Positions 8,127 to 43,842 of a DNA stretch of 64,000 bases are shown piece after piece. The DNA is taken from assembly GCA_016928395.1 (NCBI GenBank), contig JAFGKV010000063.1, positions 1 through 64,000 on the forward strand, given 5' to 3'. The position numbers and the translations under genes are program-made. Source of the DNA: Candidatus Fermentibacterota bacterium. GTDB lineage: Bacteria; JAFGKV01. Below the pieces are notes generated by a model that saw only the letters and a program-made list of their open reading frames with translations, made no database searches and had not been told where the DNA came from. Positions within the stretch are counted from its first letter, which is position 1. Every line of letters starts with the position of its first letter.

Positions 8127-9454
8127 GCCGGCTTCCGCTGACCACGCGCGACCGGGAACTGATGCTCTCCCGGATCGGTGTGGATCGCTTCGACGACTTG
8201 CTCCGTCCCATCCCTGAGACTGCGCGCTTCTCGGGGCTGCTTGACCTTCCGCCTTCCCTGGCGGAGGGCGCGCTGGCCCGGCATGTGAAGGAACTCTCAG
8301 AACGGAACGTGCCTGTGCTCAGCTTCATGGGTGCGGGATCCTACGAGCACTTCCGGCCGGCGGTGGTTGACTATGTCTGCGGGCGCCCCGAGTTCCGCAC
8401 CGCCTATACTCCCTACCAAGCCGAAGTGAGCCAGGGGACCCTCCAAACCATCTATGAGTTTCAGACGGCCATCGTGGAACTCACCGGCATGGAAGTCGCG
8501 AATGCGTCCATGTATGAGGGTGGAAGTGCCGTTGCAGAGGCGATGCTCATGGCCGTATCCGCCACCGGTAGATCCTCGATTCTCATCAGTGAGGGGGTCC
8601 ACCCGCTGGTTCGCAGGGTCGTGCATACCTATGCACGACCCAACGGCATCGCGGTGATTCCGGTACCGCTGCACCAGGGCACCACGCCCGACACCGCGGT
8701 TCGCGAACGAGCAGAAGGGGCAGCGGGACTCATCTATCAAGAGCCGAACTTCTTCGGCTGTATCGAGAACCAGCAACGTCTCATAGAGGCGTCCCATGCC
8801 GCGGGTGGCCTGGCCATCGCCAGCGTTGATCCGCTGTCTCTATCCGTTCTTGAGCCGCCCGGCGCTTTGGGTGCCGATATCGCGGCGGGAGAAGGGCAGG
8901 CCCTGGCCGCTCCCGTATCTTTCGGAGGCCCCGGGGTTGGGTTTCTCGCCTGTACTCAGCGACTGATCCGCAAGCTTCCGGGCAGGCTGGTCGGCGCAAC
9001 GGTAGACGGCCAAGGGAGGCGAGGCTTCGTGCTTACACTGCAGGCCCGGGAGCAGCATATCCGACGCCAAAAGGCTACCAGCAATATCTGCACGAACCAG
9101 GCTCTGGTCGCTTTGGGTTTCTTGGTAACGGTCTCGGCCCTGGGCCCCCACGGATTGGCCAACATGGCGAGCCAAGCGACTCAGAAAGCCCATTACTACC
9201 AGCACGCGCTTCAGAAGCGAGGGTTCCCCCTGGCGTTTGACGCGCCGTTCCTTTGGGAGTTCACGGTGCGCACCGGCATACCCGCCGCCACCTATGTGGA
9301 GGGGCTGCTCTCCCGTGGCGTGCTCCCGGGCCTTGATTTGGGCACAGTGTCTCCTGACCTGGCTGAGCGCCTTCTCGTCTACGTATCGGAAATGCGAACC
9401 CGCGAGGAGCTTGATCGTACCGCCGAGCTGATGGGGGAGGTGAGTCATGGCTGA
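8123..9454 (+). CDS. gcvPA: Glycine dehydrogenase subunit 1
   Basis: [44 protein letters not shown]. Confidence 0.96.
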
Positions 9455-10904
9455 GAAGATCATCTACGAACTGGGCTCGCCCGGCCGCCAGTCGGTGGAT
9501 CTTCCTCCTCTGGACGTACCCTCCGAGGACGCGGGTGCCATGATCCCTGCGGGTACCCGGCGTGTGAAGCCGCCCATGCTCCCCGAGATCGACGAACTGG
9601 AGTTGATCCGCCACTTCGTCCGCTTGTCCGTACTGAATCATCATGTAGAGAAGGGGTTCTATCCCCTGGGATCGTGCACCATGAAGGCCAATCCACCGGT
9701 GAACGAGGTCTTGGCGGCCCTCCCCGGCTTTGCCTTGGCTCATCCGTGGTGGCCTGCACGTCTGGCGCAGGGATCATTGCGCCTCATGGCCGAACTGGAG
9801 GCAATGCTGGCGGAAATCTGTGGCCTCTCCGCCACGACGCTTCAGCCGGCCGCAGGCGCCCATGGCGAACTCACCGGCCTCATGGTGGTACGGGCCTATC
9901 ATGAGTCGCACGGCAATCCTCGCAAGCGGGTGATCGTGCCAGACTCGGCCCACGGCACCAACCCGGCCAGCGCATCGCTGGTGGGCTATGAGATCGTGGA
10001 GATCAAGTCTGACGGTGACGGCCTGGTGGACTTGGCCGCCTTGGAGAGGGCGTTGGACGAGGACACCGCCGTGTTCATGCTGACCAACCCGAACACGCTG
10101 GGCCTGTTCGAACGCCGCATCTGCCAGATCCAGCAGATGGTCCATGCGAAGGGCGCCCTGCTCTACATGGACGGCGCCAACATGAACGCCCTCCTGGGCA
10201 TCGTCCGCCCGGGTGACACCGGCTTTGACCTGGTGCACCTCAACCTGCACAAGACCTTCTCGACGCCCCACGGAGGCGGAGGACCGGGCGCGGGACCGCT
10301 GGTTGTAGCGGAGAAGTTGGCGCCATTCCTTCCTGTGCCTCGCATCGTTCAGGCAGAGGACGGATCCCTGCGGTGGGACTATGATAGGCCCCAATCAATC
10401 GGCAAGGTCATGACATGGTGGGGCAACTTCGGGGTGCTGGTGCGGGCGTATGCCTACATCCGTTCGCGGGGAGCCCGGGGCCTGGCTCAGGTGAGCGAAG
10501 CCGCCATACTCAATGCCAACTATCTTCTGGCGTTGGTACAGGATCGTTTCGATCTGCCCTACCCTGGCCCGTGCATGCACGAATTCGTGCTCAGCGGCGA
10601 CCGGCAGAAGAAGCGTGGCGTCCGCACACTAGACATGGCGAAACGACTCTTGGACAAGGGCATGCATGCACCAACCATCTACTTCCCGCTGATTGTCAGC
10701 GAAGCCATGATGATCGAGCCGACGGAGACGGAATCCCGGGAGAGCGTCGAGGAGTTCGCGCGCGCGCTCCTCGAGGTAGCCGATGAGGCGGAAGAGAACC
10801 CCGAGTTCGTTCATGCCGCGCCCCACTCGACCCCTGTGGGCCGTTTAGATGAAACCAGGGCAGCCCGCCAGCCTGACCTGGCCTTCAAACGGCCAAAGAC
10901 TTGA
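9447..10904 (+). CDS. gcvPB: Glycine dehydrogenase subunit 2
   Basis: [22 protein letters not shown]-Lys motif [18 protein letters not shown]. Confidence 0.97.
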
Positions 10905-10966
10905 CGCAAACGGGGGATGGAAGGCAGGAACACTGCAGGCAGCCGCACCCGCGAGAACGAGGTCGG

Positions 10967-11764
10967 ATGAGCGAGACACGGTCTTCCTCACCTGCTGATC
11001 GGGCAGCTTCATGGCGAGTTATTCTTGATGGCGAGGCGTCACCGGGGTTCAACATGTCCTTGGATCAGGTCATCGCGGAATGTGTCGCCGGCGGCGAAAG
11101 CCCCCCGACCCTGCGGTTTTACGGATGGGATCGACCCGCGGTGTCCTTGGGCTACCACCAGAGTCCGGAGAAAGTATTGGACATGGCGGCCGTGAACGCA
11201 CATGCTCTGACGGTGGTGAAGAGACCGACGGGAGGCCGGGCGGTCTTGCATGGAGACGATTTGACCTATTCCGTGGCCTTGCCCGCGAATGGACCGTGGG
11301 CTGTCAGCGTGACCGAGGCGTACCGCATGCTCAGTGAGGCATTACAGCGAGGCTTCAGGCGAGCCGGTGTCGAGGTCACTCTCGCCCGGGGCCATCGTGG
11401 AGGACTCCGCCCGGGCCCGCTGCCCTGTTTCGCGAGCACCGCGCGCCACGAACTTGTGTGGAACGGCCGCAAGCTAGTGGGCAGCGCGCAGCGACGCCTT
11501 CGGGGGGGGTTGCTTCAGCAGGGGAGCATTCCTCTGGCGAGGGGCACCATCAGACTGGATGAACTGGTTCCTCCCGGCCAGAGAATCGAGGTTGAGGATC
11601 GATGGGCCACGGTGGAGGAGGCCGCCGGTCGCCCCGTGGACCGTCTACACCTGGCCCGCGAATTGGCCCATGGTTTCGGCGAGCAGTTCGGCGTTTCGTT
11701 GTGCTTCGAGTCGCCACGAATCGACGAGACCATTGCTGCCCAAAGGATTACGGCAACTCCATGA
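10967..11764 (+). CDS. Lipoate-protein ligase / LipM-like octanoyltransferase
   Basis: PPTLRFYGW, KRPTGGRAVLH, PCF, RKLVGSAQRR, LLQQGSI; adjacent to gcv genes. Start 10967 or 10901. Confidence 0.88.
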   Translation: MSETRSSSPADRAASWRVILDGEASPGFNMSLDQVIAECVAGGESPPTLRFYGWDRPAVSLGYHQSPEKVLDMAAVNAHALTVVKRPTGGRAVLHGDDLTYSVALPANGPWAVSVTEAYRMLSEALQRGFRRAGVEVTLARGHRGGLRPGPLPCFASTARHELVWNGRKLVGSAQRRLRGGLLQQGSIPLARGTIRLDELVPPGQRIEVEDRWATVEEAAGRPVDRLHLARELAHGFGEQFGVSLCFESPRIDETIAAQRITATP

Positions 11765-12153
11765 ACGGATTCGACATACCCAACGATCCGCAGAGAGCCC
11801 CTGAAGTACCGCTCCTGCTATCACGTCTCGCGAAGGAGATCGTCGATCGCAGCCTCACCGCTCCGGCGATGATGTTCCTGGAGTCAACCAAGCCCTTGAG
11901 TTTCCTGGGAAGCCAGATTATGGTGTTCTTCTCCCCGTTCGTGAAGGCGTTCTGGGATGGCGCAAGCTACGATCAGCTTTCCGCCCTCCTGGAAGACCGG
12001 GCGAACATCGAGATCCTGCTCCAGGAGATGGAGCGTCTTGAGGCGGAACGCTCGGCGATCCGAAAGGAAGAGAAAGCACGACGCAAGGCGGAGAAAGACC
12101 GCGTGAAGGCTCAGAAGAAGGAGAGACGGTTATGGCCGAAGAACGACAACTGA
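11761..12153 (+). CDS. Conserved hypothetical small helical protein
   Basis: ATGA overlap with upstream stop; PAMMFLESTKPLSFLGSQ and LEDRANIEILL segments; basic coiled tail overlaps the next gene. Confidence 0.75.
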   Translation: MNGFDIPNDPQRAPEVPLLLSRLAKEIVDRSLTAPAMMFLESTKPLSFLGSQIMVFFSPFVKAFWDGASYDQLSALLEDRANIEILLQEMERLEAERSAIRKEEKARRKAEKDRVKAQKKERRLWPKNDN

Positions 12154-13964
12154 ACCTCGCGGAGCTGAGGAGCATCCTTGCCACCGATTGTGGCAGCACG
12201 ACCACCAAGGCGATCCTCATCGAGAAGGAAGCTGATGAGTACCGGCTGAAAGTGCGCGGCGAGGCGCCCACCACGGTGGAAAGGCCCGCCGAAGACGTGA
12301 CGAGGGGTGTGCTCAATGCCGTGAGCGAGGTGGAGGAGCTCACGAACCGCACCATCCTTGACGGCGAGATCATCATAAAACCCCGCACCGAAACGAAAGG
12401 AGTCGATATCTATATTTCGACCTCCAGCGCCGGGGGAGGGCTGCAGATGATGGTGGCGGGGGTGGTGAAGAGCATGACCGGGGAAAGCGCCCAGCGTGCC
12501 GCGCTGGGCGCTGGCGCCATCGTGATGGATGTACTCGCATCGAATGACGGCCGCCTGCCCCACCAGCAGATCGAGCGTATCCGCAATCTCAGACCTGACA
12601 TGATCCTCCTCTCCGGAGGAATTGACGGAGGGACAACCACCCATGTCGCGGAACTGGCGGAAATCATCTCCGCCGCAGATCCCAAGCCCCGGCTCGGCCA
12701 CGGCTACAAGCTTCCGGTGATCTATGCGGGAAATGCTCAGGCGCGCGACATCGTGCGGGATATTCTGGGCAACAAGGTCGAACTGTTCATCGTCGACAAT
12801 TTGAGACCGGTGTTGGAACGGGAGAATCTCGGCCCGGCCCGCGAGAAGATCCATGAGCTCTTCATGGAGCACGTCATGCAGCAGGCGCCTGGTTATGCCA
12901 AGCTCATGCAGTGGACCGATGTGCCCATCATGCCGACCCCAGGAGCCGTGGGCCTCATCATCCAGACCATCGCCCGCCAACACGGCATCGATGTCGTCGG
13001 AGTCGACATCGGCGGCGCCACCACCGATGTGTTCAGTGTGTTCTCGGACACGTTTAACCGCACAGTGAGCGCCAATCTCGGAATGAGCTACTCGGTCTCC
13101 AACGTATTCGCCGAGACGGGCCTGGACAATGTCATGCGCTGGGTCCCATTCGACATGGATGAACTGGATCTCCGTAACCGCATAAAGAACAAGATGATTA
13201 GACCGACCACCATCCCGCAGCTCATGGAGGAGTTGATCGTCGAGCAGGCCATCTCCCGGGAGGCGCTGCGGCTGGCGTTCATTCAGCACAAGTCATTTGC
13301 CGTGGGATTGAAAGGCGTCCAGCAGGAGCGGACGATCTCCGACACCTTCGAGCAGAAAGGCTCCGGCGAGACGCTGGTCAACATGATGAGCCTGAAACTC
13401 CTGGTCGGCTCCGGCGGCGTTCTCTCCCATGCCCCTCGACGCAACCAGGCTGCGATGATGCTCGTTGATGCCTTCCTGCCCGAGGGATTCACGCATCTGG
13501 CGGTTGACTCCATCTTCATGATGCCTCAGTTGGGCGTACTGTCAACGGTGCACCCGGATGCCGCGACCCAGGTGTTCGAGCGCGATTGCCTCATCCATTT
13601 GGGTACCTGCATCGCCCCGGTGGGCCCTGGCAAGCCTGGCAAGACGGCTCTGGAACTCGATATCGAGCTTCCCGGCGGTTCGACTCATGTCGAGATGGAG
13701 TATGGGAAGATGAAGCTGATCCCACTGGGGGTCGGCGAGAAGGCCATGGTGAGGGCCCGGCCCGGCAAGGGGCTGGACCTCGGTGCCGGCAGGGGCGCCG
13801 AGATGAGCGAGGAGGTCGAGGGTGGTGTCGTGGGCATCATTCTGGACACGCGGGGGAGGAATCCTTTCGTACTGCCCGTGGATGCCAAGGAACGGGTGCC
13901 GAAGCTCGTTGAATGGATCGCTGCCCTGGATGCCTATCCGGCGGCTGCGCTGCAGCGGCACTAA
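12132..13964 (+). CDS. GlmL (glutamate mutase L)-like ASKHA-fold ATPase
   Basis: ATDCGSTTTK, SSAGGGLQM, LSGGIDGG, MPTPGAV, GVDIGGATTDVFS, RTVSANLGM. Confidence 0.85.
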   Translation: MAEERQLNLAELRSILATDCGSTTTKAILIEKEADEYRLKVRGEAPTTVERPAEDVTRGVLNAVSEVEELTNRTILDGEIIIKPRTETKGVDIYISTSSAGGGLQMMVAGVVKSMTGESAQRAALGAGAIVMDVLASNDGRLPHQQIERIRNLRPDMILLSGGIDGGTTTHVAELAEIISAADPKPRLGHGYKLPVIYAGNAQARDIVRDILGNKVELFIVDNLRPVLERENLGPAREKIHELFMEHVMQQAPGYAKLMQWTDVPIMPTPGAVGLIIQTIARQHGIDVVGVDIGGATTDVFSVFSDTFNRTVSANLGMSYSVSNVFAETGLDNVMRWVPFDMDELDLRNRIKNKMIRPTTIPQLMEELIVEQAISREALRLAFIQHKSFAVGLKGVQQERTISDTFEQKGSGETLVNMMSLKLLVGSGGVLSHAPRRNQAAMMLVDAFLPEGFTHLAVDSIFMMPQLGVLSTVHPDAATQVFERDCLIHLGTCIAPVGPGKPGKTALELDIELPGGSTHVEMEYGKMKLIPLGVGEKAMVRARPGKGLDLGAGRGAEMSEEVEGGVVGIILDTRGRNPFVLPVDAKERVPKLVEWIAALDAYPAAALQRH

Positions 13965-14011
13965 CGGCATGCACACCCATGGATACACAGTGCATCGATA
14001 GGAGGTGAGTC

Positions 14012-15139
14012 GTGGCTCATGCATATACACCAGGATTGAGGGTTGCCGACCTCACCATCGTCCAGAAGGAGCGCCGGCTGCCGTTACCCGGACAGGTGCT
14101 GGTGAATGTCGGCGACAGGGTGACTGCGACTCAGGTCGTAGCACGCACCGAGCTTCCGGGGAATGTCGAGAGTGTCAACGTCGCCAATCGTTTGGGCGTC
14201 CCCCCGGAAGATGTGCCCCACTGCATGCTGAAGAAGGAAGGCGACCCCGTCCAGAAGGGCGAAATCATGGCCCAGAGCAAGAGCTTCTTCGGCTTGTTCA
14301 AATCATCGTGCCAGGCAACGGTCGACGGCACCGTTGAGACAGTGTCCTCCGTAACGGGACAGGTACTCCTCCGAGAGCCCCCCATGCCGGTAGAAGTCCG
14401 GGCCTATGTAGATGGCGTCGTTACCGAGGTGCTGCCCCGGGAGGGTGTGATCGTCGAGACCCCCGCGACCTTCATCCAAGGAATCTTCGGCATCGGCGCT
14501 GAAACTCAAGGTGAACTGGTCATGGTAGCCAGTAGCTCGGATGAGGTGCTCGAGGCCGACCGCCTCACCGAGGCGGTACGCGGCAAGGTCGCGGTTGGCG
14601 GATCGCTGGTGACCGCGGCGGCCATCCGCAAGGCCATCGCCGTCGGCGCCAAAGGGATTATCGCCGGAGGCCTTCACGACAAAGACCTGCGGGAGTTTCT
14701 GGGATATGATCTCGGCGTCGCTATCACCGGTAACGAGGACAAGGGGATCACCCTGATTGTCACGGAAGGATTCGGCACTATCAGAATGGCAGAAGGGACT
14801 TTTGCATTGCTCAAGCGATGCGAGGGGATGGAATGCTCGATGAACGGGGCAACGCAAATTCGGGCCGGCGTGATCCGGCCGGAGGTCGTCATTCCCCGAC
14901 GCGACGAGCAGGTCGACGTCGATGGAGACGCCCGGGAGGGAGCCGGCAACATGGTGATCGGGAGCCCTGTCCGGGCTATTCGTGAGCCCTATTTCGGCCG
15001 CCTCGGCACAGTAAGTGCTCTGCCCTCAGAGCTGCAGCGTGTCGAATCCGAGACCATGGTGCGCGTCCTCGAGGTGCAGTTCGATGACGGCACCCGGGCC
15101 GTGGTCCCCCGCGCCAACGTGGAACTCATCGAGAAATAG
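14012..15139 (+). CDS. Uncharacterised protein with barrel-sandwich-hybrid-like motifs and C-terminal KOW/SH3-like region
   Basis: VLVNVGDRVTATQVVA and LKKEGDPVQKGEIMA motifs; C-terminal VRAIREPYFGRLGTV...VVPRANVELI; GGAGG RBS before GTG. Confidence 0.75.
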   Translation: MAHAYTPGLRVADLTIVQKERRLPLPGQVLVNVGDRVTATQVVARTELPGNVESVNVANRLGVPPEDVPHCMLKKEGDPVQKGEIMAQSKSFFGLFKSSCQATVDGTVETVSSVTGQVLLREPPMPVEVRAYVDGVVTEVLPREGVIVETPATFIQGIFGIGAETQGELVMVASSSDEVLEADRLTEAVRGKVAVGGSLVTAAAIRKAIAVGAKGIIAGGLHDKDLREFLGYDLGVAITGNEDKGITLIVTEGFGTIRMAEGTFALLKRCEGMECSMNGATQIRAGVIRPEVVIPRRDEQVDVDGDAREGAGNMVIGSPVRAIREPYFGRLGTVSALPSELQRVESETMVRVLEVQFDDGTRAVVPRANVELIEK

Positions 15140-15194
15140 GGCGAGCCTCCACGCATCTTGAACGAGACGCCTCCGGGCGTCATGGAGGGCCGGC

Positions 15195-16430
15195 ATGAGC
15201 CCGACGCTCATCTCCAGCCTCTTGGCAGGGTTCTTGGTTGGTGTGGTTCTCGGGCTCATCCTGCTGCGCGTAGGCCCACCGCGCCAGGCCAAAACGAGCC
15301 GTGAGGAAGACGCGGCAGCGTGGGCGTCGGTGCTCAATCAGGCCGTACGAGAGATGAAGACACGCCAGGTCACGGCGGACTCTCAGCGTGAGGATGCAGA
15401 GCACCGGGCAATACACACCGAAATGCTCTACCGGATGATCCTGGACGCGGTACCCAACGGAGTCGTAGCTTTCGACACCTCCGGTGCGGTGGTCACCGCC
15501 AATCCGGTGGCTCGCCGCCTCCTGGGGATAGACAAGACCAATGCGGTGGAGATGCCCCCCACTCTGGCGAGCTATCTCAGATCGGCTTTGAACGGGTCGA
15601 CTCCTCCCTACGTGGAAACCGACCTTTTGGTTGGGCATGCCGTCGTGCCTGTCGGCGTCCAGATCCGCCCGCTGTCCGTGAGTACGGCGACACCCGGCGC
15701 GGTTATGGTAGTCGCTGAACTGGCCGAACTCCGGCGGCTGCAAACCCGTGCCCGGCTCATGGAGGATCTGGCCGATCTGGGGCAGCTCACCGCGGGCATC
15801 GCCCATGAGTTTCGTAACGCCTCAGGAACCCTTCGGGCATCGGCCCAGTTTCTGGCAGACAAGGTCGACGGAGCGGCCAAGGAGGCGGTACACGATCTTC
15901 TTGAAGAGACAGACAAGCTCGCGCGTGTCACGACCGAGTTGCTTGATTTCGCGAAACCCTGGGACCGAGGCATCGAGTCGGTCGAGTTGGATCCCCTGAT
16001 TCGTCAGGTGTCCGGCCAGCTTGGGGCAGCCTTTCCCTCGCACCCGGTGGAACTGCGGCTCACCTGCCCCACACGTTCAGTGATGGGCAAAGGCACACTA
16101 CTGGCCCGAGTGATCGATAATCTCATTCGTAACGCCGCCGAAGCCAACCCGCCAGGTGCGCAGATCAGGGTGGAATCATCCTCGACCCGCGACGAAGGCG
16201 GCTCATGGCTCGTGGTGACGGTTATGGACCGCGGCTGCGGTCTTGCCTGGGGTGATGCGGAGGAGGCCTTCCTCCCCTTTCGAAGCACTAAGCCTGGCGG
16301 CACTGGCATGGGTCTAACTCTGGCGAGGAAGATAGCCCGCCTGCACGGCGGCACGCTGACCCTAACCAATCGTGATGGAGGCGGTGCCGTCGCGACGCTC
16401 AGGCTGCCATTCGGCGACGAAGAGGTATGA
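15195..16430 (+). CDS. Sensor histidine kinase (single TM, PAS-like, HisKA, HATPase)
   Basis: LGQLTAGIAHEFRN, NLIRNAAEA, DRGCG, AFLPFRSTKPGGTGMGL. Confidence 0.92.
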   Translation: MSPTLISSLLAGFLVGVVLGLILLRVGPPRQAKTSREEDAAAWASVLNQAVREMKTRQVTADSQREDAEHRAIHTEMLYRMILDAVPNGVVAFDTSGAVVTANPVARRLLGIDKTNAVEMPPTLASYLRSALNGSTPPYVETDLLVGHAVVPVGVQIRPLSVSTATPGAVMVVAELAELRRLQTRARLMEDLADLGQLTAGIAHEFRNASGTLRASAQFLADKVDGAAKEAVHDLLEETDKLARVTTELLDFAKPWDRGIESVELDPLIRQVSGQLGAAFPSHPVELRLTCPTRSVMGKGTLLARVIDNLIRNAAEANPPGAQIRVESSSTRDEGGSWLVVTVMDRGCGLAWGDAEEAFLPFRSTKPGGTGMGLTLARKIARLHGGTLTLTNRDGGGAVATLRLPFGDEEV

Positions 16431-16626
16431 CATATCACTCGGGCGAGGCCGACGGCATGCACATGCGCCGAGTGTTAAAGCGATACGACAATGGCAACGG
16501 CCGACGCACCTCTGCAACACGGAAAATCCCAGGGACGGGGCTCGCAGAGAGCGACGCGACGCCCCCCTGCGGCCGCGGGTATCGGGAAGTCACACGGGCG
16601 ATGGCCCACGCGTGGCTCAGCAAGGA

Positions 16627-16956
16627 TTAGTGGTCGTGGGCATTCAGGTTGATGATGCAATATCCGTCGAAATCGTAAGGAGCCCCAAACGGGCACGATG
16701 GAATGACCGGCACGAATTCCGGGGCCAAATCCTGCAACGAAGCGGCCACTTCTCCGTTGCCAGCCAAGTACATGGATGCCGCGCTGTTCAGGGTTGAGAT
16801 GTTCCCATGGCACTTGGCCAGCTTGGCAGTATCCGTCACTTCAAGATACCGGGGAAGCAACAGCGCCGTCAGAATCATGATGACGGCGCAGATCACCATC
16901 AGTTCAACCAGTGTGAACCCTTGTTGGCCACCTCTGCAAAAGGGCTGGAACATCAT
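16627..16956 (-). CDS. Type IV pilin / pseudopilin-like protein
   Basis: Class III signal QQG|FTLVELMVICAVIMILTALLLP with Glu at +5; short Cys-containing C-terminal domain. Confidence 0.88.
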   Translation of the reverse strand: MMFQPFCRGGQQGFTLVELMVICAVIMILTALLLPRYLEVTDTAKLAKCHGNISTLNSAASMYLAGNGEVAASLQDLAPEFVPVIPSCPFGAPYDFDGYCIINLNAHDH

Positions 16957-17044
16957 GTGGATCACTCCCATAGGTGAGAGGCACGAGACGACCGGCAGCA
17001 CATACCACGAACTCCGGAGACCTCACTGCGGTCAATGGTCCTCC

Positions 17045-17060
17045 TGCAATTCTCGGACCG
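17045..17060 (-). promoter_or_regulatory. Candidate sigma54 -24/-12 promoter for the pilin gene
   Basis: Minus strand CGGTCCGAGAATTGCA = GG-N10-GC with perfect TTGCA, about 90 nt upstream of the pilin start. Confidence 0.6.
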
Positions 17061-17111
17061 CCTTCTTCGCAATGCCTTTTTCCCTTCGTGCAGCGATTTC
17101 GGAGGCTGGTC

Positions 17112-18518
17112 ATGAGTGATCGGTCGCAGAGTGCCCGGGCAAAAGTACTCCTGGTTGAGGATCGCGAGACCCTGCGAAGATCCTTCGCCCGCCTGCTGAC
17201 CGAACGCTCATACGAGGTCCAGGAAGCGCCCGATCTGGCCCGCGCCCGTGCCGAGTTGGAGAATCATCCCCCCGATGTGGTGCTCACTGATCTCAAGCTC
17301 CCCGACGGCGAGGGTACCGAACTACTCTCACTGTGCCAGCAACTCCCCAAGCCACCTCCGGTGATTCTCCTTACCGCGTACGGTTCAGTGGAAACCGCGG
17401 TGCAGGCAATGCGGCGGGGCGCATACGACTTTCTCACCAAGCCGGTAGACTCGGAGCACCTTCTGCTCGTGACCCAACGCGCACTGCAGGATTCCGCCCG
17501 CCGGTGGCGCCTGGAGGCCTTGGCTTCGGTAGAAGACGAACCCACCCTTCTCGGCGATAATGCTCCCTTCCGAGAAGTCGTGCATCGCGCGTGCACTGCT
17601 GCGGCGACCGACACCACCGTTCTCCTTCTGGGAGAGAGTGGCACTGGGAAGGAGCTGCTGGCGCGCCTTATTCACCAGCGCAGCACGCGAAAGGATGGTG
17701 TGTTTGTGCCGGTCAACTGCGCGGCTATATCGGCTTCTCTGGCCGAGAGCGCCCTCTTCGGCCATGAACGCGGCGCATTCACCGGAGCCCGTGAACGCCA
17801 CCGCGGCTGGTTCGAGCTCGCCCACGGAGGCACGCTCTTCCTCGATGAAATCGGCGACCTTGAGCATGGGCTCCAGGGCAAGTTCCTCCGTGTCTTGGAG
17901 GACGGGATGCTGCAGCGGGTGGGTGGTTCCCAGTGGCTGAAGGTCAATGTCCGCGTCATCGCGGCCAGCAACCGCGACCTCAGCACCGATGTTGCAGCGG
18001 GCCGGTTCCGTAGCGACCTCTACTACCGTCTCGCCGTATTCCCCCTGGTGTTGCCGCCTTTGCGAGAGCGCCTCGATGACATCCCGATCCTCGCGCTTCA
18101 TCTCCTGAACCGCCATTCCAAGGCCTTGGGACGAGGACAGCTCTCCCTGAGTGTCTCTGCGCTGGACGCATTGGCGCACTACCATTGGCCCGGGAACATA
18201 CGGGAGCTGGCCAATGTCCTGGAAAGAACTGCGATTCTCGCCCGGGAACCGCTAATCACCCCCGAGATGCTGCCGCCTCTGCAGCGGCTTTCCGTCGAGA
18301 CCGTTCCCGGGGAGGACCTGAGTCTGCCGCGCCAAGTTGCCGCCGTGGTCGAAAGAGTCGAGCGTGAGGCGATCACCCGCGCCCTGCGGAAGACCTCCGG
18401 TCGAAGAAGTGAGGCGGCGCGCCTGCTGGGAATCACCTATCGGACTTTGCTCAACAAACTCAACTCCTATGACATGGAATCCCCGAAGGGAGCCCCGCAT
18501 ACTCGTGGAGGAGAATGA
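17112..18518 (+). CDS. Sigma54-dependent response regulator (NtrC/PilR family)
   Basis: Receiver domain (LLVED, TDLKLPD, KP), GESGTGKE, GAFTGA, LFLDEIG, C-terminal Fis-type HTH. Confidence 0.96.
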   Translation: MSDRSQSARAKVLLVEDRETLRRSFARLLTERSYEVQEAPDLARARAELENHPPDVVLTDLKLPDGEGTELLSLCQQLPKPPPVILLTAYGSVETAVQAMRRGAYDFLTKPVDSEHLLLVTQRALQDSARRWRLEALASVEDEPTLLGDNAPFREVVHRACTAAATDTTVLLLGESGTGKELLARLIHQRSTRKDGVFVPVNCAAISASLAESALFGHERGAFTGARERHRGWFELAHGGTLFLDEIGDLEHGLQGKFLRVLEDGMLQRVGGSQWLKVNVRVIAASNRDLSTDVAAGRFRSDLYYRLAVFPLVLPPLRERLDDIPILALHLLNRHSKALGRGQLSLSVSALDALAHYHWPGNIRELANVLERTAILAREPLITPEMLPPLQRLSVETVPGEDLSLPRQVAAVVERVEREAITRALRKTSGRRSEAARLLGITYRTLLNKLNSYDMESPKGAPHTRGGE

Positions 18519-36158: not shown

Positions 36159-37967
36159 TCACCGGATACGCACCGTTCGATGCACCGCCCGGCCACCCTC
36201 GTCATCAATGACCATCAGCATGTAAGTCCCCGCGGGAAGCGTTCCCGGCTGCAGCCACCCTCCACAGGAGGGAAGATGCCATTGTCCGACTACCCGTCCG
36301 GCCACGTCGTACAGAGCGGCCTCTCCATTGGAATGGGCTCCTCGGAGCGCTACCCAAAACCCCGTGTGCCACGGATTGGGAGCAGTATCAATGCGAAGCA
36401 CGGCAGGAGAACGGTCTGCTCCGAGCCCACCATACGCGACCCAGATACACGATCCACTGCTCTCCAAATGGACGGCCGACTCCCGGAACCGGACATTCAA
36501 CCCGAATGCAGGCCCCGATCCGGTCAGCAACCATCGCGTTGCCTGGCCGGAAACCCCCGCCCCCGAAGCACCCACGGCATACCCGTACATGCCCGCAGGA
36601 GTGCCGCAGGCCCCCGCCCCTGCGGCATACCCCGCCGTGTCGGCATCCACGGGATTCAGGCTGCTCAGCACCGCGACGGCCTCTTCCAATTCACCCGGAG
36701 GCACCAGGGCCGGTGACGAGCCATCGGCCAACAGTACCGGCGATGCAAGGCCGTCAGCGGCGATAACGTAGACGCCGTCACGGCAGAAGGCAAAGGGCCG
36801 TGACGCGCCGGTCAGATCCGAACCGACCACAATGCCCAGCACGCCATTGAGGGGTTCCCCCTCTACCGTCCAGCACGCCGTTGCCGGTTGCCTGAGCACC
36901 CAGGCGCCTTCGGGATTCCATGAAACCCAAATGCCGTTGGTCCAGATGACGCCCATCATTTCGTCGAGCGCCTCGTCCGTGGCCGTGCGATACTCAATGG
37001 ATGTGCCCGCAAGGCGGTAGACGCCATCCCGAGTCCACGCGACGGTGGTGGTCGAATTGGCCACTACGCCCCGCACGCCGCATAAGGATGATCCATCTGA
37101 GTGCAAGTACTCCACGGCCGGGGTCGTCAGTTGCCAGGCACTGGAATCGGACCATGCCACTGGCGCACCCAGGCCGGACACCACGCCTCGGATGCCCTTC
37201 AAGGACGCTCCATCCACCGTCACACACTGCTCGCATGGACGACCCACACGCCAGACCGCGCTATCCGTCCACGCAATGGCGTACTCCCCTGCCGACACAA
37301 GACCTCGGACCCCCGCGAGTGGATCTCCTCCGGGAAGCGACGCCTCCTGCGAAACCGGCGCAAGGTAGTACACACGATCGCCGGACCAGCCGAACGCCGT
37401 GGAAGCAACGCCGACTACCGCATACACACCGGGGATTGACTGCCCCGCGGTGTCTCTATACTCCAGAGCGGTGACTCCCGACAGTTGAAAGACCCCTTCA
37501 CCGGTCCAGCCAAGCACGCTGCCGCTCACCTGCGTTGCTCCCCGGAGACCGACGATCGAGTCACCCGAGGGAAGCCGATACTCCCGGCACTCCTGACCCA
37601 GTGCCCACACTGCCTCTGCCGTCCATCCCACGGGGTCTCCGGGCGAGAGGGCGACACCCCGAAGGCCCGCCAAGGGAAGGCCTTCGGGAAGAAGATAAGA
37701 GATAGCGGGTGATGTGAGCAGATAGGCAGCAGAGTCAGTCCATGCGATGGTTCCGTTGCGGGCCCTGCACCCGGCCTCTACCCCGCGGATTGCCTCCCCG
37801 GATGGGCCAAGAACCTCAACAAGGCCCGGGCCGATTCTCCACACATGATCAGCGTTCCACACGAAGCCCTGCTCTGCACTCACCACGCCTCCGCTGATAC
37901 CCGCACTCGCACCGGCTGCGCAGAGGATGACAATTGAGAAGAGAACTGTGGCCAATCTGCAGTACAT
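36159..37967 (-). CDS. Secreted repeat protein (about ten ~39-aa repeats) with T9SS/FlgD-like C-terminal tail
   Basis: Signal peptide; repeats of GxxLxGVRGVV...AWTxxxVWxL; tail PNPW...LYDVAGRVV...LPAGTYML. Confidence 0.75.
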   Translation of the reverse strand: MYCRLATVLFSIVILCAAGASAGISGGVVSAEQGFVWNADHVWRIGPGLVEVLGPSGEAIRGVEAGCRARNGTIAWTDSAAYLLTSPAISYLLPEGLPLAGLRGVALSPGDPVGWTAEAVWALGQECREYRLPSGDSIVGLRGATQVSGSVLGWTGEGVFQLSGVTALEYRDTAGQSIPGVYAVVGVASTAFGWSGDRVYYLAPVSQEASLPGGDPLAGVRGLVSAGEYAIAWTDSAVWRVGRPCEQCVTVDGASLKGIRGVVSGLGAPVAWSDSSAWQLTTPAVEYLHSDGSSLCGVRGVVANSTTTVAWTRDGVYRLAGTSIEYRTATDEALDEMMGVIWTNGIWVSWNPEGAWVLRQPATACWTVEGEPLNGVLGIVVGSDLTGASRPFAFCRDGVYVIAADGLASPVLLADGSSPALVPPGELEEAVAVLSSLNPVDADTAGYAAGAGACGTPAGMYGYAVGASGAGVSGQATRWLLTGSGPAFGLNVRFRESAVHLESSGSCIWVAYGGLGADRSPAVLRIDTAPNPWHTGFWVALRGAHSNGEAALYDVAGRVVGQWHLPSCGGWLQPGTLPAGTYMLMVIDDEGGRAVHRTVRIR

Positions 37968-38299
37968 GGTTTGCCTCCGGCTTTGATCCCAACACGGCAC
38001 TCCTCAGCGTTGGCTCAATATAGCCTCCGACAGCCCCGTCACAAGGGGCTACTACTCAGACCCATCAGGGTTCAGCCTTCAGACAGCGACGCGTACCCGG
38101 GCGTGTCACCGTCCGCGTGCTTCATTCCGTGCTCGGGATTCCTGCGGCGATTCCCGCTCAGGAAAGGCGAATCGTCGAGTGCTGAGTGCCGACCGCACGC
38201 GTAGCGGGCGCGCTCCACACCGTGCCAGATCACTCAGCCCCGAACCAAGGCCGACCGGACAGTTGCCGTGGCAGGGTCGCGCCGTCGACGGGAGAGAAA

Positions 38300-39262
38300 C
38301 TAAAGAAGCCTGGCCTCCCGGTACCATTGTGCCGTTCGTTCCATGCCGGCGTGAACCTGGACCGACGGCGCAAACCCCAAGATTGTTCGGGCCTTGGCGA
38401 TGGAGAACTCCCTGTTCTTGGTGAAAAAGTCCATGCGCCGCTTGAAGATGGGAGGGGTAAGCCCTAGGAGAGGACACAGTCGCTCGGCCACGGAAGCCGC
38501 AGCCATGAACGGCCATACGGGGAGGTGTAGCCGGGGTGCGGCAGCTCCCAGTACGTCGGCAACGGTGGCGGCCCACTCATTCAGGGTCGGCGCATGAGGG
38601 CCGGCCAGGATGAAAACCTCACCCGCCGCCTGGGGTAGCCGGCCGCACAGAAGAATGCCCTCGATCAGATCATCTATGTAGGTAAGATGATACCTCGGCG
38701 TGCCATCGCCGATCATGAAGAACCGGCCCCGGGCGATGAGCCTGAAGAACTTCAGGAGGCGCCGATCGCCAGGACCGTAGATGCCGGATGGTCTGAAGAT
38801 GACCAGCTCCATGGATGATGACTGCCGCTGTAAGTACTCCTCGGCGGCACACTTGCTCGCCTGATACGGATCCGTTGGTGCAAAGGGCGAGTCTTCTGCG
38901 GCGGCGGCCCCGTGGATTTCCCCGTGAACCCCCACCGTACTGCAGTACACGAAGCGCCGCACGCCGGCATTCCGGGCCGCGGCGTACATATGCTCGGTAC
39001 CGTGGAGATTGGCGGCCATGTGATCCGCTTCACCGAACCCCGTGTCACGGTACGAGGCAGCGAGGTGATAGACAGTGTCGATGCCCTCTACGGCCCGGGC
39101 GCAGGCTGCCGGGTCACGAACATCCCCCGTGGTGATCTCGCTCATGAACCTCGCGGCGGGCGCCCGTCTGAGCATGGCGCGCACCGACTCCCCCTCGCGT
39201 ACGAGCCGGGCGACCAGGTGGCCCCCGGTGAACCCTCCGGCACCGGTTACAAGTACAGCCAC
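38300..39262 (-). CDS. NAD-dependent epimerase/dehydratase (extended SDR)
   Basis: VTGAGGFTG, YHLAA, STVGVHG, YQASK, RPSGIYGPG. Confidence 0.92.
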   Translation of the reverse strand: MAVLVTGAGGFTGGHLVARLVREGESVRAMLRRAPAARFMSEITTGDVRDPAACARAVEGIDTVYHLAASYRDTGFGEADHMAANLHGTEHMYAAARNAGVRRFVYCSTVGVHGEIHGAAAAEDSPFAPTDPYQASKCAAEEYLQRQSSSMELVIFRPSGIYGPGDRRLLKFFRLIARGRFFMIGDGTPRYHLTYIDDLIEGILLCGRLPQAAGEVFILAGPHAPTLNEWAATVADVLGAAAPRLHLPVWPFMAAASVAERLCPLLGLTPPIFKRRMDFFTKNREFSIAKARTILGFAPSVQVHAGMERTAQWYREARLL

Positions 39263-39287: not shown

Positions 39288-39923
39288 TCAACCGAGAATC
39301 GCAGCCAGGGTAGGACGAACCCAATCGTCGACCAAAAAGGTGAGCCGGCCAACCAACAGCGAGATGCGTGCCATCACGGTGTAGCCGAAGCTCGCGCCGA
39401 AACAGACCATGATAAACCATATGCCGAGCCGGCTGACAGGCCTGAGTATCCCCGTATGAGGCCGGGAGAAGTAGAAATAGACCAACACCGAAAGCACGCC
39501 CACCAGCACCAGCAGATTCTGCACACTGGCCAGGGAAAGGGGCAGAAGAGGCAGCATGGTATCCTTCACTTGGGGGAGTACATCCCCGTGCAGCCGTTGC
39601 ATGAGCTCCACACCGACGAAGTATCCCATGTAGACGGCCAAAGCCCAACGGCCCAGGAACGAGACACGCTGTACATACCGGAGGTAGAGCATGATGCCCA
39701 ACACGCCGCCGATGACAAGATACCAGTTCCTGCCGGGATCCGCGGCCAGCTTCTGGAAAAGATTGGGTATGATGGTTCGGTGGAGGACGATGCCGATCTC
39801 ATATCCCAGGGAGAGTCCGACGAAGAGACTCTCTGCGAACCGGTAGAGGGGGTTATCCTTGTAGAGGAAGCTGTAGATCGCCAGCGTGAGAAACGCAGCA
39901 ACCCAGGCACTAACGAGGTCCAA
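39288..39923 (-). CDS. Uncharacterised membrane protein
   Basis: About 6 TM; YSFLYKDNPLYRFAE, FGASFGYTVMARISLL; TTG start after GGAGG. Confidence 0.8.
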   Translation of the reverse strand: MDLVSAWVAAFLTLAIYSFLYKDNPLYRFAESLFVGLSLGYEIGIVLHRTIIPNLFQKLAADPGRNWYLVIGGVLGIMLYLRYVQRVSFLGRWALAVYMGYFVGVELMQRLHGDVLPQVKDTMLPLLPLSLASVQNLLVLVGVLSVLVYFYFSRPHTGILRPVSRLGIWFIMVCFGASFGYTVMARISLLVGRLTFLVDDWVRPTLAAILG

Positions 39924-40785
39924 GTCTTCCTCCCGCGCGGGTGCGCTCACTTCGCGAGAGCACGTAGAAGACATTACCAAGAAGGATGAACACGATGATG
40001 ATGAGGTGAACTATGGACTGCACATCCATGCCCCTCCTGGCAACCCGAGCCCTGTCTCGCAACTCAGGGTAGGCACTGGCAAGGAGCTCCTCGTACTCGG
40101 CCGCCCCCTTCAGCCCACCCAGAAGCCCGATCATCTGGCCGGCCTTCAGATAAGTATAGTACTTGGGCGCGGAGACCGCGGTGGCCCCGACGGCCACCGT
40201 CTGCCCAAACTGGGCATTGACGAGGTTTGCCCAATACTCGCCCAGAATGCCGGTTGCCAGGCTTACGGCCACGCCGATCTGCGGATAGCCTCTCACCTCC
40301 TGCATGAGAGGAATCTCTTTTAGAGGAATGCCCCGATGATCCCGGGGAAACGCTGCCGAGATATCTTCCGCCATCCTGCGCATCACCGCCTGGGCGCCGT
40401 CTTTGTAGCCCAGGTAGACGAAATCGCGGCCCTCTTCAACGGAGAACTCACCAGTCACTCGATCCAGGCTTCCCTGGGCCATGTTGGGCCCACCCAACGG
40501 AAACAACGCCAGCACGACCACCCTGACACCACGCGTGAAGCAATGGCGTAGAATCGCATCGGCCATGGGATCTAGCTCAGGAGCCGAGCTGGGGCCGTAG
40601 TCGAATGAGAGCATGAGAACATCCTGCGGGCCAAACGACTCAACCCGCTGGAACAGGGCTTCCACGGCGGGGGTGGTCAGGATTGGCAGGCCCATGGGGA
40701 TGAGGACCGGGAGCAAGGCGCCCACGGCAACCAGGAGATAGACCCAACGCCGGTCAATACCGCCTACCTGTTGTGCATCCGACAT
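39910..40785 (-). CDS. Uncharacterised membrane-anchored alpha/beta protein
   Basis: IDRRWVYL plus TM, SFDYGP, GLLGGLKGAAEYE, C-terminal TM. Confidence 0.8.
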   Translation of the reverse strand: MSDAQQVGGIDRRWVYLLVAVGALLPVLIPMGLPILTTPAVEALFQRVESFGPQDVLMLSFDYGPSSAPELDPMADAILRHCFTRGVRVVVLALFPLGGPNMAQGSLDRVTGEFSVEEGRDFVYLGYKDGAQAVMRRMAEDISAAFPRDHRGIPLKEIPLMQEVRGYPQIGVAVSLATGILGEYWANLVNAQFGQTVAVGATAVSAPKYYTYLKAGQMIGLLGGLKGAAEYEELLASAYPELRDRARVARRGMDVQSIVHLIIIVFILLGNVFYVLSRSERTRAGGRLGPR

Positions 40786-40786
40786 C

Positions 40787-41425
40787 TTACTCTCCCGCCC
40801 CACCCATATATGGGCGCTCGATGCCGAGAATGATCCTGATGGCCATGGATGCAGCTCCCAAGGCCGCACCGATGAGGATGCCCCGCTGCGCGGCAAGGTT
40901 GGGGACATTCATGATCCACTCGGTCAGTGCGGCGCTGGGCGGGAGCACGAACTTTCCGATGGGCACCCGGCCCAGCATGACGATGACAGCCGAGATCATC
41001 AGGATTGCAGCCTCGAGGTTCTTGACCCGGAAGGCCCGGAAGGCCGCCGAGGCAATCATGAAGGCGAGGAGGCTGAACATCGTGGCCTGCAAAGGAGTGA
41101 AGACGGTGTCGAAGAGCCAGTTGAAACCGACGGCCCTGCCCTGGGCCGATACAAACGGCTCCACAATGCCTAAAGAAGCCATGACCGCGAATGACGCGAC
41201 ACTCACGATGGAGTTACGCCACCCGATGCTGCGCCGTCCAATCTTCTTGGAATGGTGCTGCAAAAAGCTGACGACGCCCAACGGCAAGGCGAACGCGGTC
41301 ACGATCATGAGGAGTTCATCCAGCTTCTCGTTGAGCCCCACCACCACTGGAGCGCTAACGAAGAAGGCGACGACGACGAAGGTGCCGGTGAGAAACGCGA
41401 GTAGAACCGGTATTTGCCGCTTCAA
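40787..41425 (-). CDS. Uncharacterised membrane protein
   Basis: About 6 TM; PLQATMFSLLAFMIASAAFRAFRV, GIERPYMG. Confidence 0.8.
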   Translation of the reverse strand: MKRQIPVLLAFLTGTFVVVAFFVSAPVVVGLNEKLDELLMIVTAFALPLGVVSFLQHHSKKIGRRSIGWRNSIVSVASFAVMASLGIVEPFVSAQGRAVGFNWLFDTVFTPLQATMFSLLAFMIASAAFRAFRVKNLEAAILMISAVIVMLGRVPIGKFVLPPSAALTEWIMNVPNLAAQRGILIGAALGAASMAIRIILGIERPYMGGAGE

Positions 41426-41429
41426 GGGT

Positions 41430-42431
41430 TCACTCCTGGGTGAAGAAGTCGGCGAACTCGCCGATTCCGAGAGATGACAAGACCATCCCCACCACGATGA
41501 GGACGATCAGCGCCGCCTTGACGAGATCCTGACCTTTGATAGAGCCAAGGATCAGCGGTTCCCGCGATAGGTACGCGCTGGCAGCGTACAGCTCTTCTCC
41601 GATGAGCGTGTAGTCACACGCCACCACGAAAAACGGGAGCTGCGCCAGCTCCGCGGTGCCGGCTACCTGGATGGCCCCTGCCGCATTGCCGGCCTCCGCC
41701 ATAATCAACGATTCGGCGTAGAATGAACCGATGAGGAAGTTGGTGGCAGGCTTTTCCCTGGTCATGAGCCCCTGAATCGCGGCCGTATAGGCGAACTGGT
41801 CATACGTTACATAGTTGACCATGTCTTCCTGGAAATAGTCAGGCCGGCCGGCCTTCATGTACGCTTCCTTCACGACCTCACGCGCCGTGGCCAGGACAAG
41901 GGGATCCTTGTTCGGCACCTCCAGCTGCGTACCATAGGCGGCTGTTCGTTCTGCAACATACCCAAGGATCGACATGGAGGCCACAGTCTGGATATTGTCC
42001 ACAGACATGATCCCCGGAATGTAGAGCACCTTGCGGCCCATCTCGGTAGCGCGGCCCACGGCCTCATCAACAGCGTCTAAACCAGCAATCTTCCGGATGA
42101 AGAGCGGCGCTCCCTTCTTGGCCAGACCAATGTACGCCAGTATCGCACCAGCAAAGAAGGTGAAGAGTAGCAATGCGTTCAGCCGCTCCTCTCGGAAAAA
42201 CCTGGAGGGTGTAGCTGTGGTCTCCATGCCGCTCAGGGTGACCAAGGCTATGGCGGAGTCTGCCGAGGCGCCGGCCAGATCCGACATGCAGGGTGTCGCC
42301 GACACGCACAGCATCAGCAGGGCCCCGCCGAACAGAACACTTGCCGCCCGCGCCGCCCGATGGACGGCAGAACATCGCCGCGACAACCACGGCACGAAGA
42401 CCCTGGCTTTATCCCACCACCCAACGGTCAT
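41430..42431 (-). CDS. DUF6754-like membrane protein
   Basis: FIRKIAGLDAVDEAVGRATEMG, FYAESLI, CDYTLIGEELYAASAYL. Family recalled from motifs; start uncertain. Confidence 0.7.
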   Translation of the reverse strand: MTVGWWDKARVFVPWLSRRCSAVHRAARAASVLFGGALLMLCVSATPCMSDLAGASADSAIALVTLSGMETTATPSRFFREERLNALLLFTFFAGAILAYIGLAKKGAPLFIRKIAGLDAVDEAVGRATEMGRKVLYIPGIMSVDNIQTVASMSILGYVAERTAAYGTQLEVPNKDPLVLATAREVVKEAYMKAGRPDYFQEDMVNYVTYDQFAYTAAIQGLMTREKPATNFLIGSFYAESLIMAEAGNAAGAIQVAGTAELAQLPFFVVACDYTLIGEELYAASAYLSREPLILGSIKGQDLVKAALIVLIVVGMVLSSLGIGEFADFFTQE

Positions 42432-42445
42432 CGAGCCCACACCGT

Positions 42446-42889
42446 CTACTCCTTCACGACCCACAATTTGATCCGGGTAGTAACATCAGCGTGAAGCCTC
42501 AGTTCAACAGCGAAGATGCCCAAGGTATTGATGGGATCATCGAGGACGATCTTCTTCTTGTCAATATCGAATCCCTTTTCCTTGAGAAGGCCGGCAATGT
42601 CCGCGGTAGTCACCCGGCCAAAAATCCTATCCTCTTCGCCGACTTTGACTCGGGCGGTCAAGGACACCCGCCGCAACTGATTGGCGAGGTGTTGTGCCTC
42701 TCGACGTGAGCGGCTCTCGGCCATCTGGGCCTGCTTGTCGCGCTCCATAAGCTGGTTCCGCGCGGCATCGCTGGCTGGAAGCCCCGTGCCGCGGGGAATC
42801 AGGAAGTTGCGGGCGTATCCATCGGCGACCTTGACCACATCGCCGCGTTTGCCCAGCGTAGGCATATCCTGCATCAGAATAAGGTCCAT
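42446..42889 (-). CDS. rplI: 50S ribosomal protein L9
   Basis: LGKRGDVVKVADGYARNFLIPRG. Confidence 0.97.
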   Translation of the reverse strand: MDLILMQDMPTLGKRGDVVKVADGYARNFLIPRGTGLPASDAARNQLMERDKQAQMAESRSRREAQHLANQLRRVSLTARVKVGEEDRIFGRVTTADIAGLLKEKGFDIDKKKIVLDDPINTLGIFAVELRLHADVTTRIKLWVVKE

Positions 42890-42917: not shown

Positions 42918-43343
42918 TCAGAAGGGCATCTCGTCGTCCACCGGTTCGTCAAATGCCTCCCGCTCAGGGGGCGGGGGGGCGTACTCGCGATCACCCTCGG
43001 CCTTGCTGAGCATCTGCAGTCGTTGTGCGTGAATCTCAATGACACTGTGGCGCTGACCATCGGAGCTCTCCCAGGTCCGAGAATGGAGTCTCCCTTCAAC
43101 CAACACCGAAGAGCCCTTATGGGCCAGCTCTGCGACGCGCTCCGCAAGCTTCTGCCAGGCGACGATGGTGAAAAAGCTGGTTTCTTCTCGTGATTCGCCG
43201 CTGGAGTCCTTATAGTAGCGGTTCACCGCAATGCCAAAGGTCGCGACGGCTACTCCGGAGGGCGTGTACCGCATCTCGGGATCGCGGGTCAACCTCCCGG
43301 TGAGCTGCACGAAATTGAGGCTGGGCAGTCTCAGGTCCGCCAT
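42918..43343 (-). CDS. ssb: Single-stranded DNA-binding protein (paralog 2)
   Basis: LNFVQLTGRLTRDPEMRYTPSG, KGSSVLVEGRL, tail DDEMPF. Confidence 0.95.
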   Translation of the reverse strand: MADLRLPSLNFVQLTGRLTRDPEMRYTPSGVAVATFGIAVNRYYKDSSGESREETSFFTIVAWQKLAERVAELAHKGSSVLVEGRLHSRTWESSDGQRHSVIEIHAQRLQMLSKAEGDREYAPPPPEREAFDEPVDDEMPF

Positions 43344-43398
43344 GTCATGCTCCTCTCCACCCTACCAGACCCTGGGGGCGTTGGATCTCCATCGGATG

Positions 43399-43842
43399 TT
43401 AGAATGGGAGATCATCCACCAGGTCGTCAACCTGCACGATGCTCTCCTCCTCATCGAGCCCTTCCGAACCGTGGGATTGATCGGTACGCGACTCGTCCAT
43501 TCGGTTGAGGAACTGGACACGAAACGCTCGGATCTCCACCACAGTTCGCCGGGCACCGCCCTCTGTCTCCCACTGGCGGCTTTGCATCTCTCCCTCGATC
43601 AGGACGGCGCTACCCTTCCGGAGGCGTTCACCTACGAGTTCGGCCAGGCGCTGCCAGGCTACGATATTCACATAACACACGTCCTCGCGCCGCTCACCGT
43701 CAGGCGAGCGATACCATCGATTCGACGCAATCCGAAAGTTGGCCACGGGCACGCCCGACGCGGTGTACCGCAGTTCAGGATCCCGCGTGAGATTTCCCGC
43801 AATAAACACTCTGTTCAACGCGGGCAAGCGGAACTCAGCCAT
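43399..43842 (-). CDS. ssb: Single-stranded DNA-binding protein (paralog 1)
   Basis: LNRVFIAGNLTRDPELRYTASG, KGSAVLIEG, tail DDLPF. Confidence 0.95.
   Translation of the reverse strand: MAEFRLPALNRVFIAGNLTRDPELRYTASGVPVANFRIASNRWYRSPDGERREDVCYVNIVAWQRLAELVGERLRKGSAVLIEGEMQSRQWETEGGARRTVVEIRAFRVQFLNRMDESRTDQSHGSEGLDEEESIVQVDDLVDDLPF

Follow-up and report, generated by a model that had tools for sequence, protein, structure and literature searches.

Downstream of the ribosomal protein gene rplI, in a 64,000-nucleotide (nt) stretch of a Candidatus Fermentibacterota bacterium genome (contig JAFGKV010000063.1; the whole stretch is called the window below), lie four closely packed genes, here named A, B, C, and D, whose products are membrane proteins of undescribed function. 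The locus raises the question of what unit these four proteins form, and whether that unit works alone or with partners encoded elsewhere. The original prediction, made from the DNA letters and their open reading frames (ORFs), proposed two paralog pairs, A/C and B/D, that together make up a pseudo-symmetric heterotetrameric transporter or ion-coupling module. The four genes, with products in amino acids (aa), are as follows.

Gene A: 41430..42431, minus strand; 333 aa; ATG start at 42431, with an alternative in-frame GTG at 42440
Gene B: 40787..41425, minus strand; 212 aa; TTG start
Gene C: 39910..40785, minus strand; 291 aa; ATG start
Gene D: 39288..39923, minus strand; 211 aa; TTG start

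The upstream gene matches both the N- and C-domains of L9 in Pfam, confirming it as rplI, and it directly precedes the four genes, all of which lie on the minus strand. The tight coupling that was predicted is evident at the junctions, where 4 nt separate A from B, 1 nt separates B from C, and C overlaps D by 14 nt. Shine-Dalgarno-like purine-rich stretches, read directly from the sequence, precede the starts of B, C, and D, and those of C and D guided our choice of start codon. For these two genes the original prediction had used upstream in-frame starts; we prefer the shorter ones because the N-termini of homologues begin at the same place in alignments. Base composition continues without a break across the A–D region.

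A Conserved and Co-inherited Membrane Cassette

Within the cassette, A carries a full-length DUF6754 match (PF20539; E = 8.3e-116, 386 bits against a cut-off of 27, profile positions 4–256 of 257). For B, C, and D, neither Pfam (hmmscan at E ≤ 0.1) nor NCBIfam gave a family. Comparison of DUF6754 loci gives good support to the view that A–D constitute a conserved, co-inherited four-subunit module of the cytoplasmic membrane, present in one to seven diverged copies per genome. A scan of one genome per species yielded at least 625 confirmed stretches, and the best 78 loci were examined. These contain 103 A genes, 21 of them too near a contig end to judge. Among the 82 that are testable, 78 have B, C, and D behind them in that sequence, three stand alone, and one is interrupted, so the four-gene order anticipated for DUF6754 loci is indeed kept. 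Tandem arrays of two or three cassettes, spaced 2965–4051 bp apart, occur in 17 of the 78 loci. A further set of 20 loci from 13 other DUF6754 genomes contains 16 complete cassettes by tblastn, one more whose C gene was recovered by clustering, and three A genes alone. When the four proteins were used as tblastn queries against the genome from which the window comes, six cassettes were found, five of them in the order A-B-C-D and the sixth split. The family is large: a profile search retrieved 4140 of 1.84 billion cluster representatives (50%-identity clusters) at E ≤ 0.001, of which 1249 also pass E ≤ 1e-30. By the record titles from the species scan, its members are spread over many mostly uncultured phyla.

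The four genes also share a history. Among 88 complete cassettes, matrices of pairwise identity for the four proteins correlate with one another at r = 0.71–0.83, while permutations reach 0.17 at most. Such joint divergence is what linked, co-adapted subunits would be expected to show. Together with the synteny, this co-divergence upholds the part of the original prediction that saw a module of co-inherited membrane proteins without a described function. All tree statements here rest on a quick maximum-likelihood tree built from 129 A proteins, in which the six A copies of this genome occupy six separate places, which makes them old. The A protein of the window groups with copies from Eisenbacteria-like and Latescibacterota records (Shimodaira-Hasegawa-like approximate likelihood ratio test, 99). 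The neighbours of the other cassettes in this genome are unrelated (an S8 peptidase, a metallo-beta-lactamase-fold protein, SpoIIE, a resistance-nodulation-division pump, and a histidine kinase), and those that recur in foreign loci are the housekeeping genes metK, ahcY, ptsI, purF, and gcvP.

Several variants of the cassette were observed. The split cassette of this genome has A alone on contig C212 (L037) and B-C-D on contig C262 (L038:6828-10436), and the orthologues of this lone A in genomes G001 and G002 likewise stand alone. On C262, an ORF precedes B, C, and D where A would be expected; it was considered as a diverged A and ruled out (hhalign probability 0.4%), and it looks lipoprotein-like. 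A strongly diverged cassette type, found in this genome at L036:4075-8162 (contig C91) and also at L030 and L031, scores only 74–109 bits with DUF6754; an SH3_3-domain protein precedes it on the same strand, and the type is present in all three genomes of this family. Two tandem C-like genes, in the order A-B-C-C-D, are seen at L079 (a Latescibacterota record) and L090 (a Gemmatimonas-like record). An apparent C-D fusion proved to be an artefact, with a TAA stop at L016:13972, and the unusually long ORFs read for C at L015 and L036 are distrusted for the same reason; a 100% C-D hit traced back to these entries.

Architecture of the Four Subunits

The layout predicted for A and C, in which an alpha-beta domain is flanked by two transmembrane (TM) helices, agrees with confident structure models of both proteins. 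The model of A has a mean predicted local distance difference test score (pLDDT) of 81.8, exceeding 90 for residues 80–330, and that of C has a mean pLDDT of 93.5; in each, a six-stranded Rossmann-like domain lies between two TM segments. Protein A begins with a signal-like N-terminus and a short linker, followed by TM1 (~81–105), the Rossmann-like DUF6754 domain (~115–290), and TM2 (~292–320). Protein C is predicted to start inside the cell and continues through TM1 (12–28), a predicted extracytoplasmic Rossmann-like domain (~36–254), and TM2 (248–283) to a basic tail. Orientation was assigned by the positive-inside rule, applied to family-averaged counts of lysine plus arginine, and on this basis the domain of A is predicted to be cytoplasmic and that of C to lie outside, on opposite faces of the membrane.

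Proteins B and D are polytopic and, as described originally, both about 210 aa long. The proposed six membrane segments hold for B, which shows six hydrophobic segments, an alternating lysine-plus-arginine pattern, and both termini predicted inside; D has about six, with a less clean pattern. In an alignment of 25 homologues of B, R130 and R133 are invariant.

Comparison with solved structures gave no specific relatives. Foldseek searches of the Protein Data Bank with the A and C models returned nothing at E ≤ 0.001, and the structural neighbours that the two domains share are all generic Rossmann-like folds. In sequence searches against solved structures, the A profile reached only an Fn3-like protein (E = 0.12) and the C profile an E of 1.7, and the B and D profiles had no match; an Atlas lookup of B and D gave unnamed clusters only.

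Ahead of its first membrane helix, A consists of a binding scaffold that varies greatly between homologues. Among the 150 best representatives, which range from 298 to 1341 aa, the DUF6754 domain is C-terminal throughout, and in all 59 long representatives (≥580 aa) that were scanned it lies behind a membrane helix at the C-terminal end. By Pfam, 11 of these 59 carry a PQQ_2/BamB-like beta-propeller, three carry fn3, one carries HEAT repeats, and 44 match DUF6754 only. Among 15 full-length ORFs, fn3 gave weak N-terminal matches in only two, both below the cut-off. The A protein of the window has just a 76-residue leader, without the large N-terminal outer domain of many homologues.

Soluble Partners Encoded Once in the Window

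About 24 kb from the cassette, the window encodes three further proteins, named Z, Y, and X here, which the proposal of a self-contained ion-coupled tetramer had missed. Each is encoded once.

Gene Z: 11761..12153, plus strand; ~130 aa; one hydrophobic stretch and a charged tail; directly upstream of Y
Gene Y: 12132..13964, plus strand; 610 aa; GlmL/MutL-family ATPase-like protein of the actin fold (acetate and sugar kinase/Hsc70/actin, ASKHA), with a C-terminal extension of ~120 aa
Gene X: 14012..15139, plus strand; 375 aa; soluble; weak barrel-sandwich-hybrid signal in the N-terminal part and weak KOW-like signal near the C-terminus

Annotation-blind clustering of the ORFs around cassettes brought out Y (~610 aa) and X (~375 aa) as recurrent genes upstream of A. 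Their distribution follows that of DUF6754. Among 41 genomes from 39 families, 14 of which have DUF6754, X is present in all 14 and in none of the other 27, and long-form Y is present in 13 of the 14 and again in none of the 27. Genomes G011 and G030 have only short canonical GlmL-like genes, with open frames of 454–467 aa. One strong X is found per genome against one to seven DUF6754 matches.

Protein Y matches PF13941 over its full length (E = 5.7e-128). It scores below all the NCBIfam GlmL cut-offs (229 versus 475 for NF040745, 219 versus 600, and 176 versus 204 for TIGR01319), and we therefore regard it as a separate subfamily. Protein X, which is 58% identical to its counterpart in L023, has weak RnfC_N and Biotin_lipoyl matches, and its profile, run against solved structures, gives the hybrid motif of RNA polymerase beta' (E = 0.014); searched as single sequences, X and Y found no match among solved structures. 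Two paralogues in the same genome, from a diverged lineage, fuse Y and X in one polypeptide (L123:492-3527, minus strand, contig C331, and L124:8826-11663, minus strand, contig C20). These proteins, of 1011 and 945 aa, join a MutL domain to an RnfC_N/NqrA_N-like barrel-sandwich domain, which argues that Y and X are functionally tied. An M55 D-aminopeptidase and an isoaspartyl peptidase are encoded close to one of the fusions, and a CitMHS transporter close to the other; the fusions may serve a second, diverged system.

Protein Z matches no Pfam or NCBIfam family. It is 38% identical, across 73 residues, to the ORF that precedes Y in L070 (E = 2e-19), and the same small ORF stands upstream of Y in nine loci. 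In the window, the order over 9447-15139 is gcvPB, lipoate-protein ligase, Z, Y, X. Glycine-cleavage P-protein genes also lie upstream of Z-Y-X in L070, where the assignment was checked with Pfam, and in L075, L076, and L083, by clustering only; this adjacency may reflect gene order kept by descent and not a link in function.

A Proposed Mechanism

These observations make it very probable that A–D form one unit and that this unit needs X. We also propose, more tentatively and aware that it could readily prove wrong, that several such membrane modules share one Y-X ATPase set. According to this proposal, a single cytoplasmic set, consisting of Y and X and perhaps Z, would use ATP while acting on the cytoplasmic domain of A in each module and would by way of that domain power conformational work in the membrane core formed by B and D. 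Specificity would come from the outward parts, namely the domain of C and the variable N-terminal outer domain carried by many A homologues. Most likely, the assembly would be a modular transporter or a mechanotransducer that moves a substrate across the membrane or handles it there.

Taken to its full extent, this proposal would define a new class of primary-active membrane machine, driven by an actin-fold (ASKHA) ATPase rather than by an ATP-binding cassette (ABC), P-type, rotary, or AAA+ (ATPases associated with diverse cellular activities) enzyme. One Y-X(-Z) set would serve interchangeable four-subunit modules, with look-alike Rossmann subunits on opposite faces and with substrate choice made by fast-evolving outer domains. 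We consider this wider claim possible, if rather doubtful.

Several observations weigh against the shared-ATPase proposal. First, G018, a 100% complete genome, has three DUF6754 matches and X, and Y was not detected there by family or protein search, nor beside X; ATPase Y may thus be dispensable. Second, Y-X lies within 10 kb of the cassette in only 20 of the 78 loci (13 directly upstream on the same strand, seven divergent), and it is absent from 36 loci for which at least 5 kb upstream could be inspected. Third, the 41 genomes include relatives, three of the 14 with DUF6754 belonging to one family, and the co-occurrence counts are not independent. Fourth, the characterised relatives of Y have been regarded as accessory or reactivating factors for soluble B12 mutases, not as motors of transport. 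Fifth, the other neighbours of the cassette vary and are mostly housekeeping genes, and so give no clue to a substrate. Finally, the sidedness of A and C comes solely from the positive-inside rule, and the function given here to A–D and their partners is an inference.

Alternative Explanations

The cassette could instead belong to an envelope-assembly or export machine, or to a mechanotransmission device, in which the cytoplasmic set moves the outer domains so that a surface polymer or an outer partner protein is exported, anchored, or remodelled, instead of a solute being imported. The outer domains of A, being binding scaffolds (propellers, Fn3) with no catalytic domain among them, are in keeping with such a role. 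So are two neighbouring genes: a Wza-like SLBB/Poly_export protein is encoded directly before A at L113:8575-9828, and in the window an NAD-dependent epimerase/dehydratase gene (38300-39262, minus strand) starts 26 nt after the D stop on the same strand. However, the Wza-like protein is only one of the 12 upstream ORFs tested, four of which are purF, and neither the epimerase gene nor rplI is conserved as a cassette neighbour in the other loci compared. By Atlas taxa, whose labels are unchecked, the cassette also occurs in single-membrane bacteria and in archaea, and so cannot depend on an outer membrane. We regard an envelope machine as unlikely, though it is the alternative that survives best.

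The original prediction itself, of a self-contained pseudo-symmetric heterotetramer built from two ancient paralog pairs (A/C and B/D) and acting as an ion-coupled secondary transporter or ion-coupling module without an ATPase, fares somewhat worse. Its sequence argument was that the ends are similar within each pair. BLASTP gives E = 2.6 for A against C, the best segment being the C-terminal helix that had been quoted (10 of 30 identities), and E = 13 for B against D, neither above chance. Profile comparison is little more favourable. With the first profiles, hhalign assigned a probability of 2.5% to A-C (P = 0.019) and 0.4% to B-D; with 129, 110, 111, and 99 sequences for A, B, C, and D, the values were 0.9% and 1.3%, against 0.4–1.0% for the four cross-pair controls. 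Thus the within-pair scores, which never exceed 2.5% for A-C and 1.3% for B-D, are no better than those across pairs, and the idea of two paralog pairs finds no backing at this level.

For A and C, the structure models speak more in favour of the idea. In the models of A and C, a membrane helix is followed by six helix-strand units, one more helix, and a long membrane helix, so that 13 elements stand in the same order between the membrane helices, and the two domains have 15 of their top 50 structural neighbours in common. The weak first hhalign alignment of A with C also paired five consecutive elements in register with the models; it did not recur with the larger alignments. Because the Rossmann-like fold is so common, we read this likeness as a shared fold class and not as common descent; a mirror duplication of A and C, with their domains on opposite faces, is possible but unproven. 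For B and D, which share only their length and approximate number of hydrophobic segments, BLASTP, hhalign, and in-register hydropathy detected no homology or specific likeness, the best hydropathy correlation (r = 0.59) being obtained only at a 24-residue shift, with a reversed control at 0.43. Of the similarity expected within pairs, A and C show a common element order and fold class; the sequence and hydropathy comparisons of B and D show none. With respect to energy coupling, the failure to detect Y in G018 would suit a unit without an ATPase, whereas the strict co-occurrence of X speaks against a self-contained one. On balance, we judge a paired, self-contained tetramer to be improbable.

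Least probable of all, and in our view very unlikely, is a family of membrane receptors in which ligands would be sensed by the variable outer domains and the signal passed to Y-X by the cytoplasmic domain of A, with B, C, and D as scaffold: the variable outer and frozen inner parts of A, the single cytoplasmic set serving many membrane units, and the histidine kinase and sigma-54 activator genes that follow X in the window would fit, but three more conserved membrane subunits, two of them polytopic, exceed what a receptor needs, no known signalling domain was found in A–D, X, or Y with Pfam or NCBIfam, and the kinase is not among the recurrent neighbours.

Comparison With Known Systems

The proposal that membrane modules share a Y-X set resembles, in logic only, the energy-coupling factor (ECF) transporters, in which one shared energising module serves many membrane components. 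The parallel lies in the single strong X for one to seven cassettes and in the dispersed units, which are presumed to differ in specificity. The unit here consists of four proteins, not one, and no ABC ATPase, EcfT, or S-component family appears among the Pfam and NCBIfam matches of A–D, Z, Y, X, or the scanned neighbours.

A second, more superficial likeness is to Rnf and Nqr complexes, which combine two six-helix paralogues of ~200 aa with a cytoplasmic subunit that has a barrel-sandwich hybrid N-domain. X shows weak RnfC_N and NqrA_N matches, and the fused paralogue gives the best score (28.7 bits, cut-off 25.6). Since B and D drew a blank in Pfam at E ≤ 0.1, they do not match the Rnf/Nqr membrane-subunit family either; an invariant cysteine is absent from B, C, and D alike, and the scans turned up neither a flavin nor an iron-sulfur domain.

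The known GlmL/MutL proteins (PF13941; NF040745, NF040744, TIGR01319) share with Y the full-length PF13941 domain. Apart from falling below the three curated cut-offs, Y differs in being ~150 aa longer than canonical forms and in having X as its partner instead of mutase genes, which are absent among the ORFs scanned at 9447-18518. The Rossmann-like domains of A and C can likewise be compared with those attached to membrane transport proteins, namely transhydrogenase domain III, KTN/RCK, and Sir2-type folds, at 5–17% identity, but many unrelated Rossmann-like folds score almost as well, differing by one or two Z units. These domains show no recognisable cofactor motif, nor was there a sequence-level match to solved structures. 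Pfam catalogues DUF6754 without a described function. The A protein of the window shares with that family the above-threshold match, the C-terminal domain behind a membrane helix, and the usual A-B-C-D order, and differs in lacking the large outer domain. A search of the full-text literature available to us found no paper on DUF6754/PF20539 or on this PF13941-linked system, though papers outside the searched library could exist, and the four-gene cassette with its partners appears to be undescribed in print.

Other Features Near the Cassette

Three further features lie close to A–D in the window.

Promoter-like site: 42536..42564, minus strand; upstream of A, within the 3'-terminal part of rplI; TTGACA-17-GATGAT, matching 10 of 12 consensus positions
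Two consecutive genes of the single-stranded DNA-binding protein (SSB) family: 42918-43842, between rpsF and rplI
Internally repetitive protein of 613 aa: 36159-38000, minus strand; no Pfam match

The promoter-like site is a consensus match only and is not evidence of function. One of the two SSB-family genes may be a PriB-like paralogue.

Significance

The cassette represents a large, strongly conserved, multi-copy family. If it is true that an actin-fold ATPase drives the modules, this would amount to a new energising principle for membrane transport, and it would explain the block of "hypothetical" genes that fills tens of kilobases in some genomes. Similarly built A and C subunits, if they do lie on opposite faces of the membrane as predicted, would also offer a testable case for the origin of such architectures. 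The contribution of the present locus is a minimal copy, in which A has no outer domain, sharing a 64-kb window with a single Z-Y-X set.

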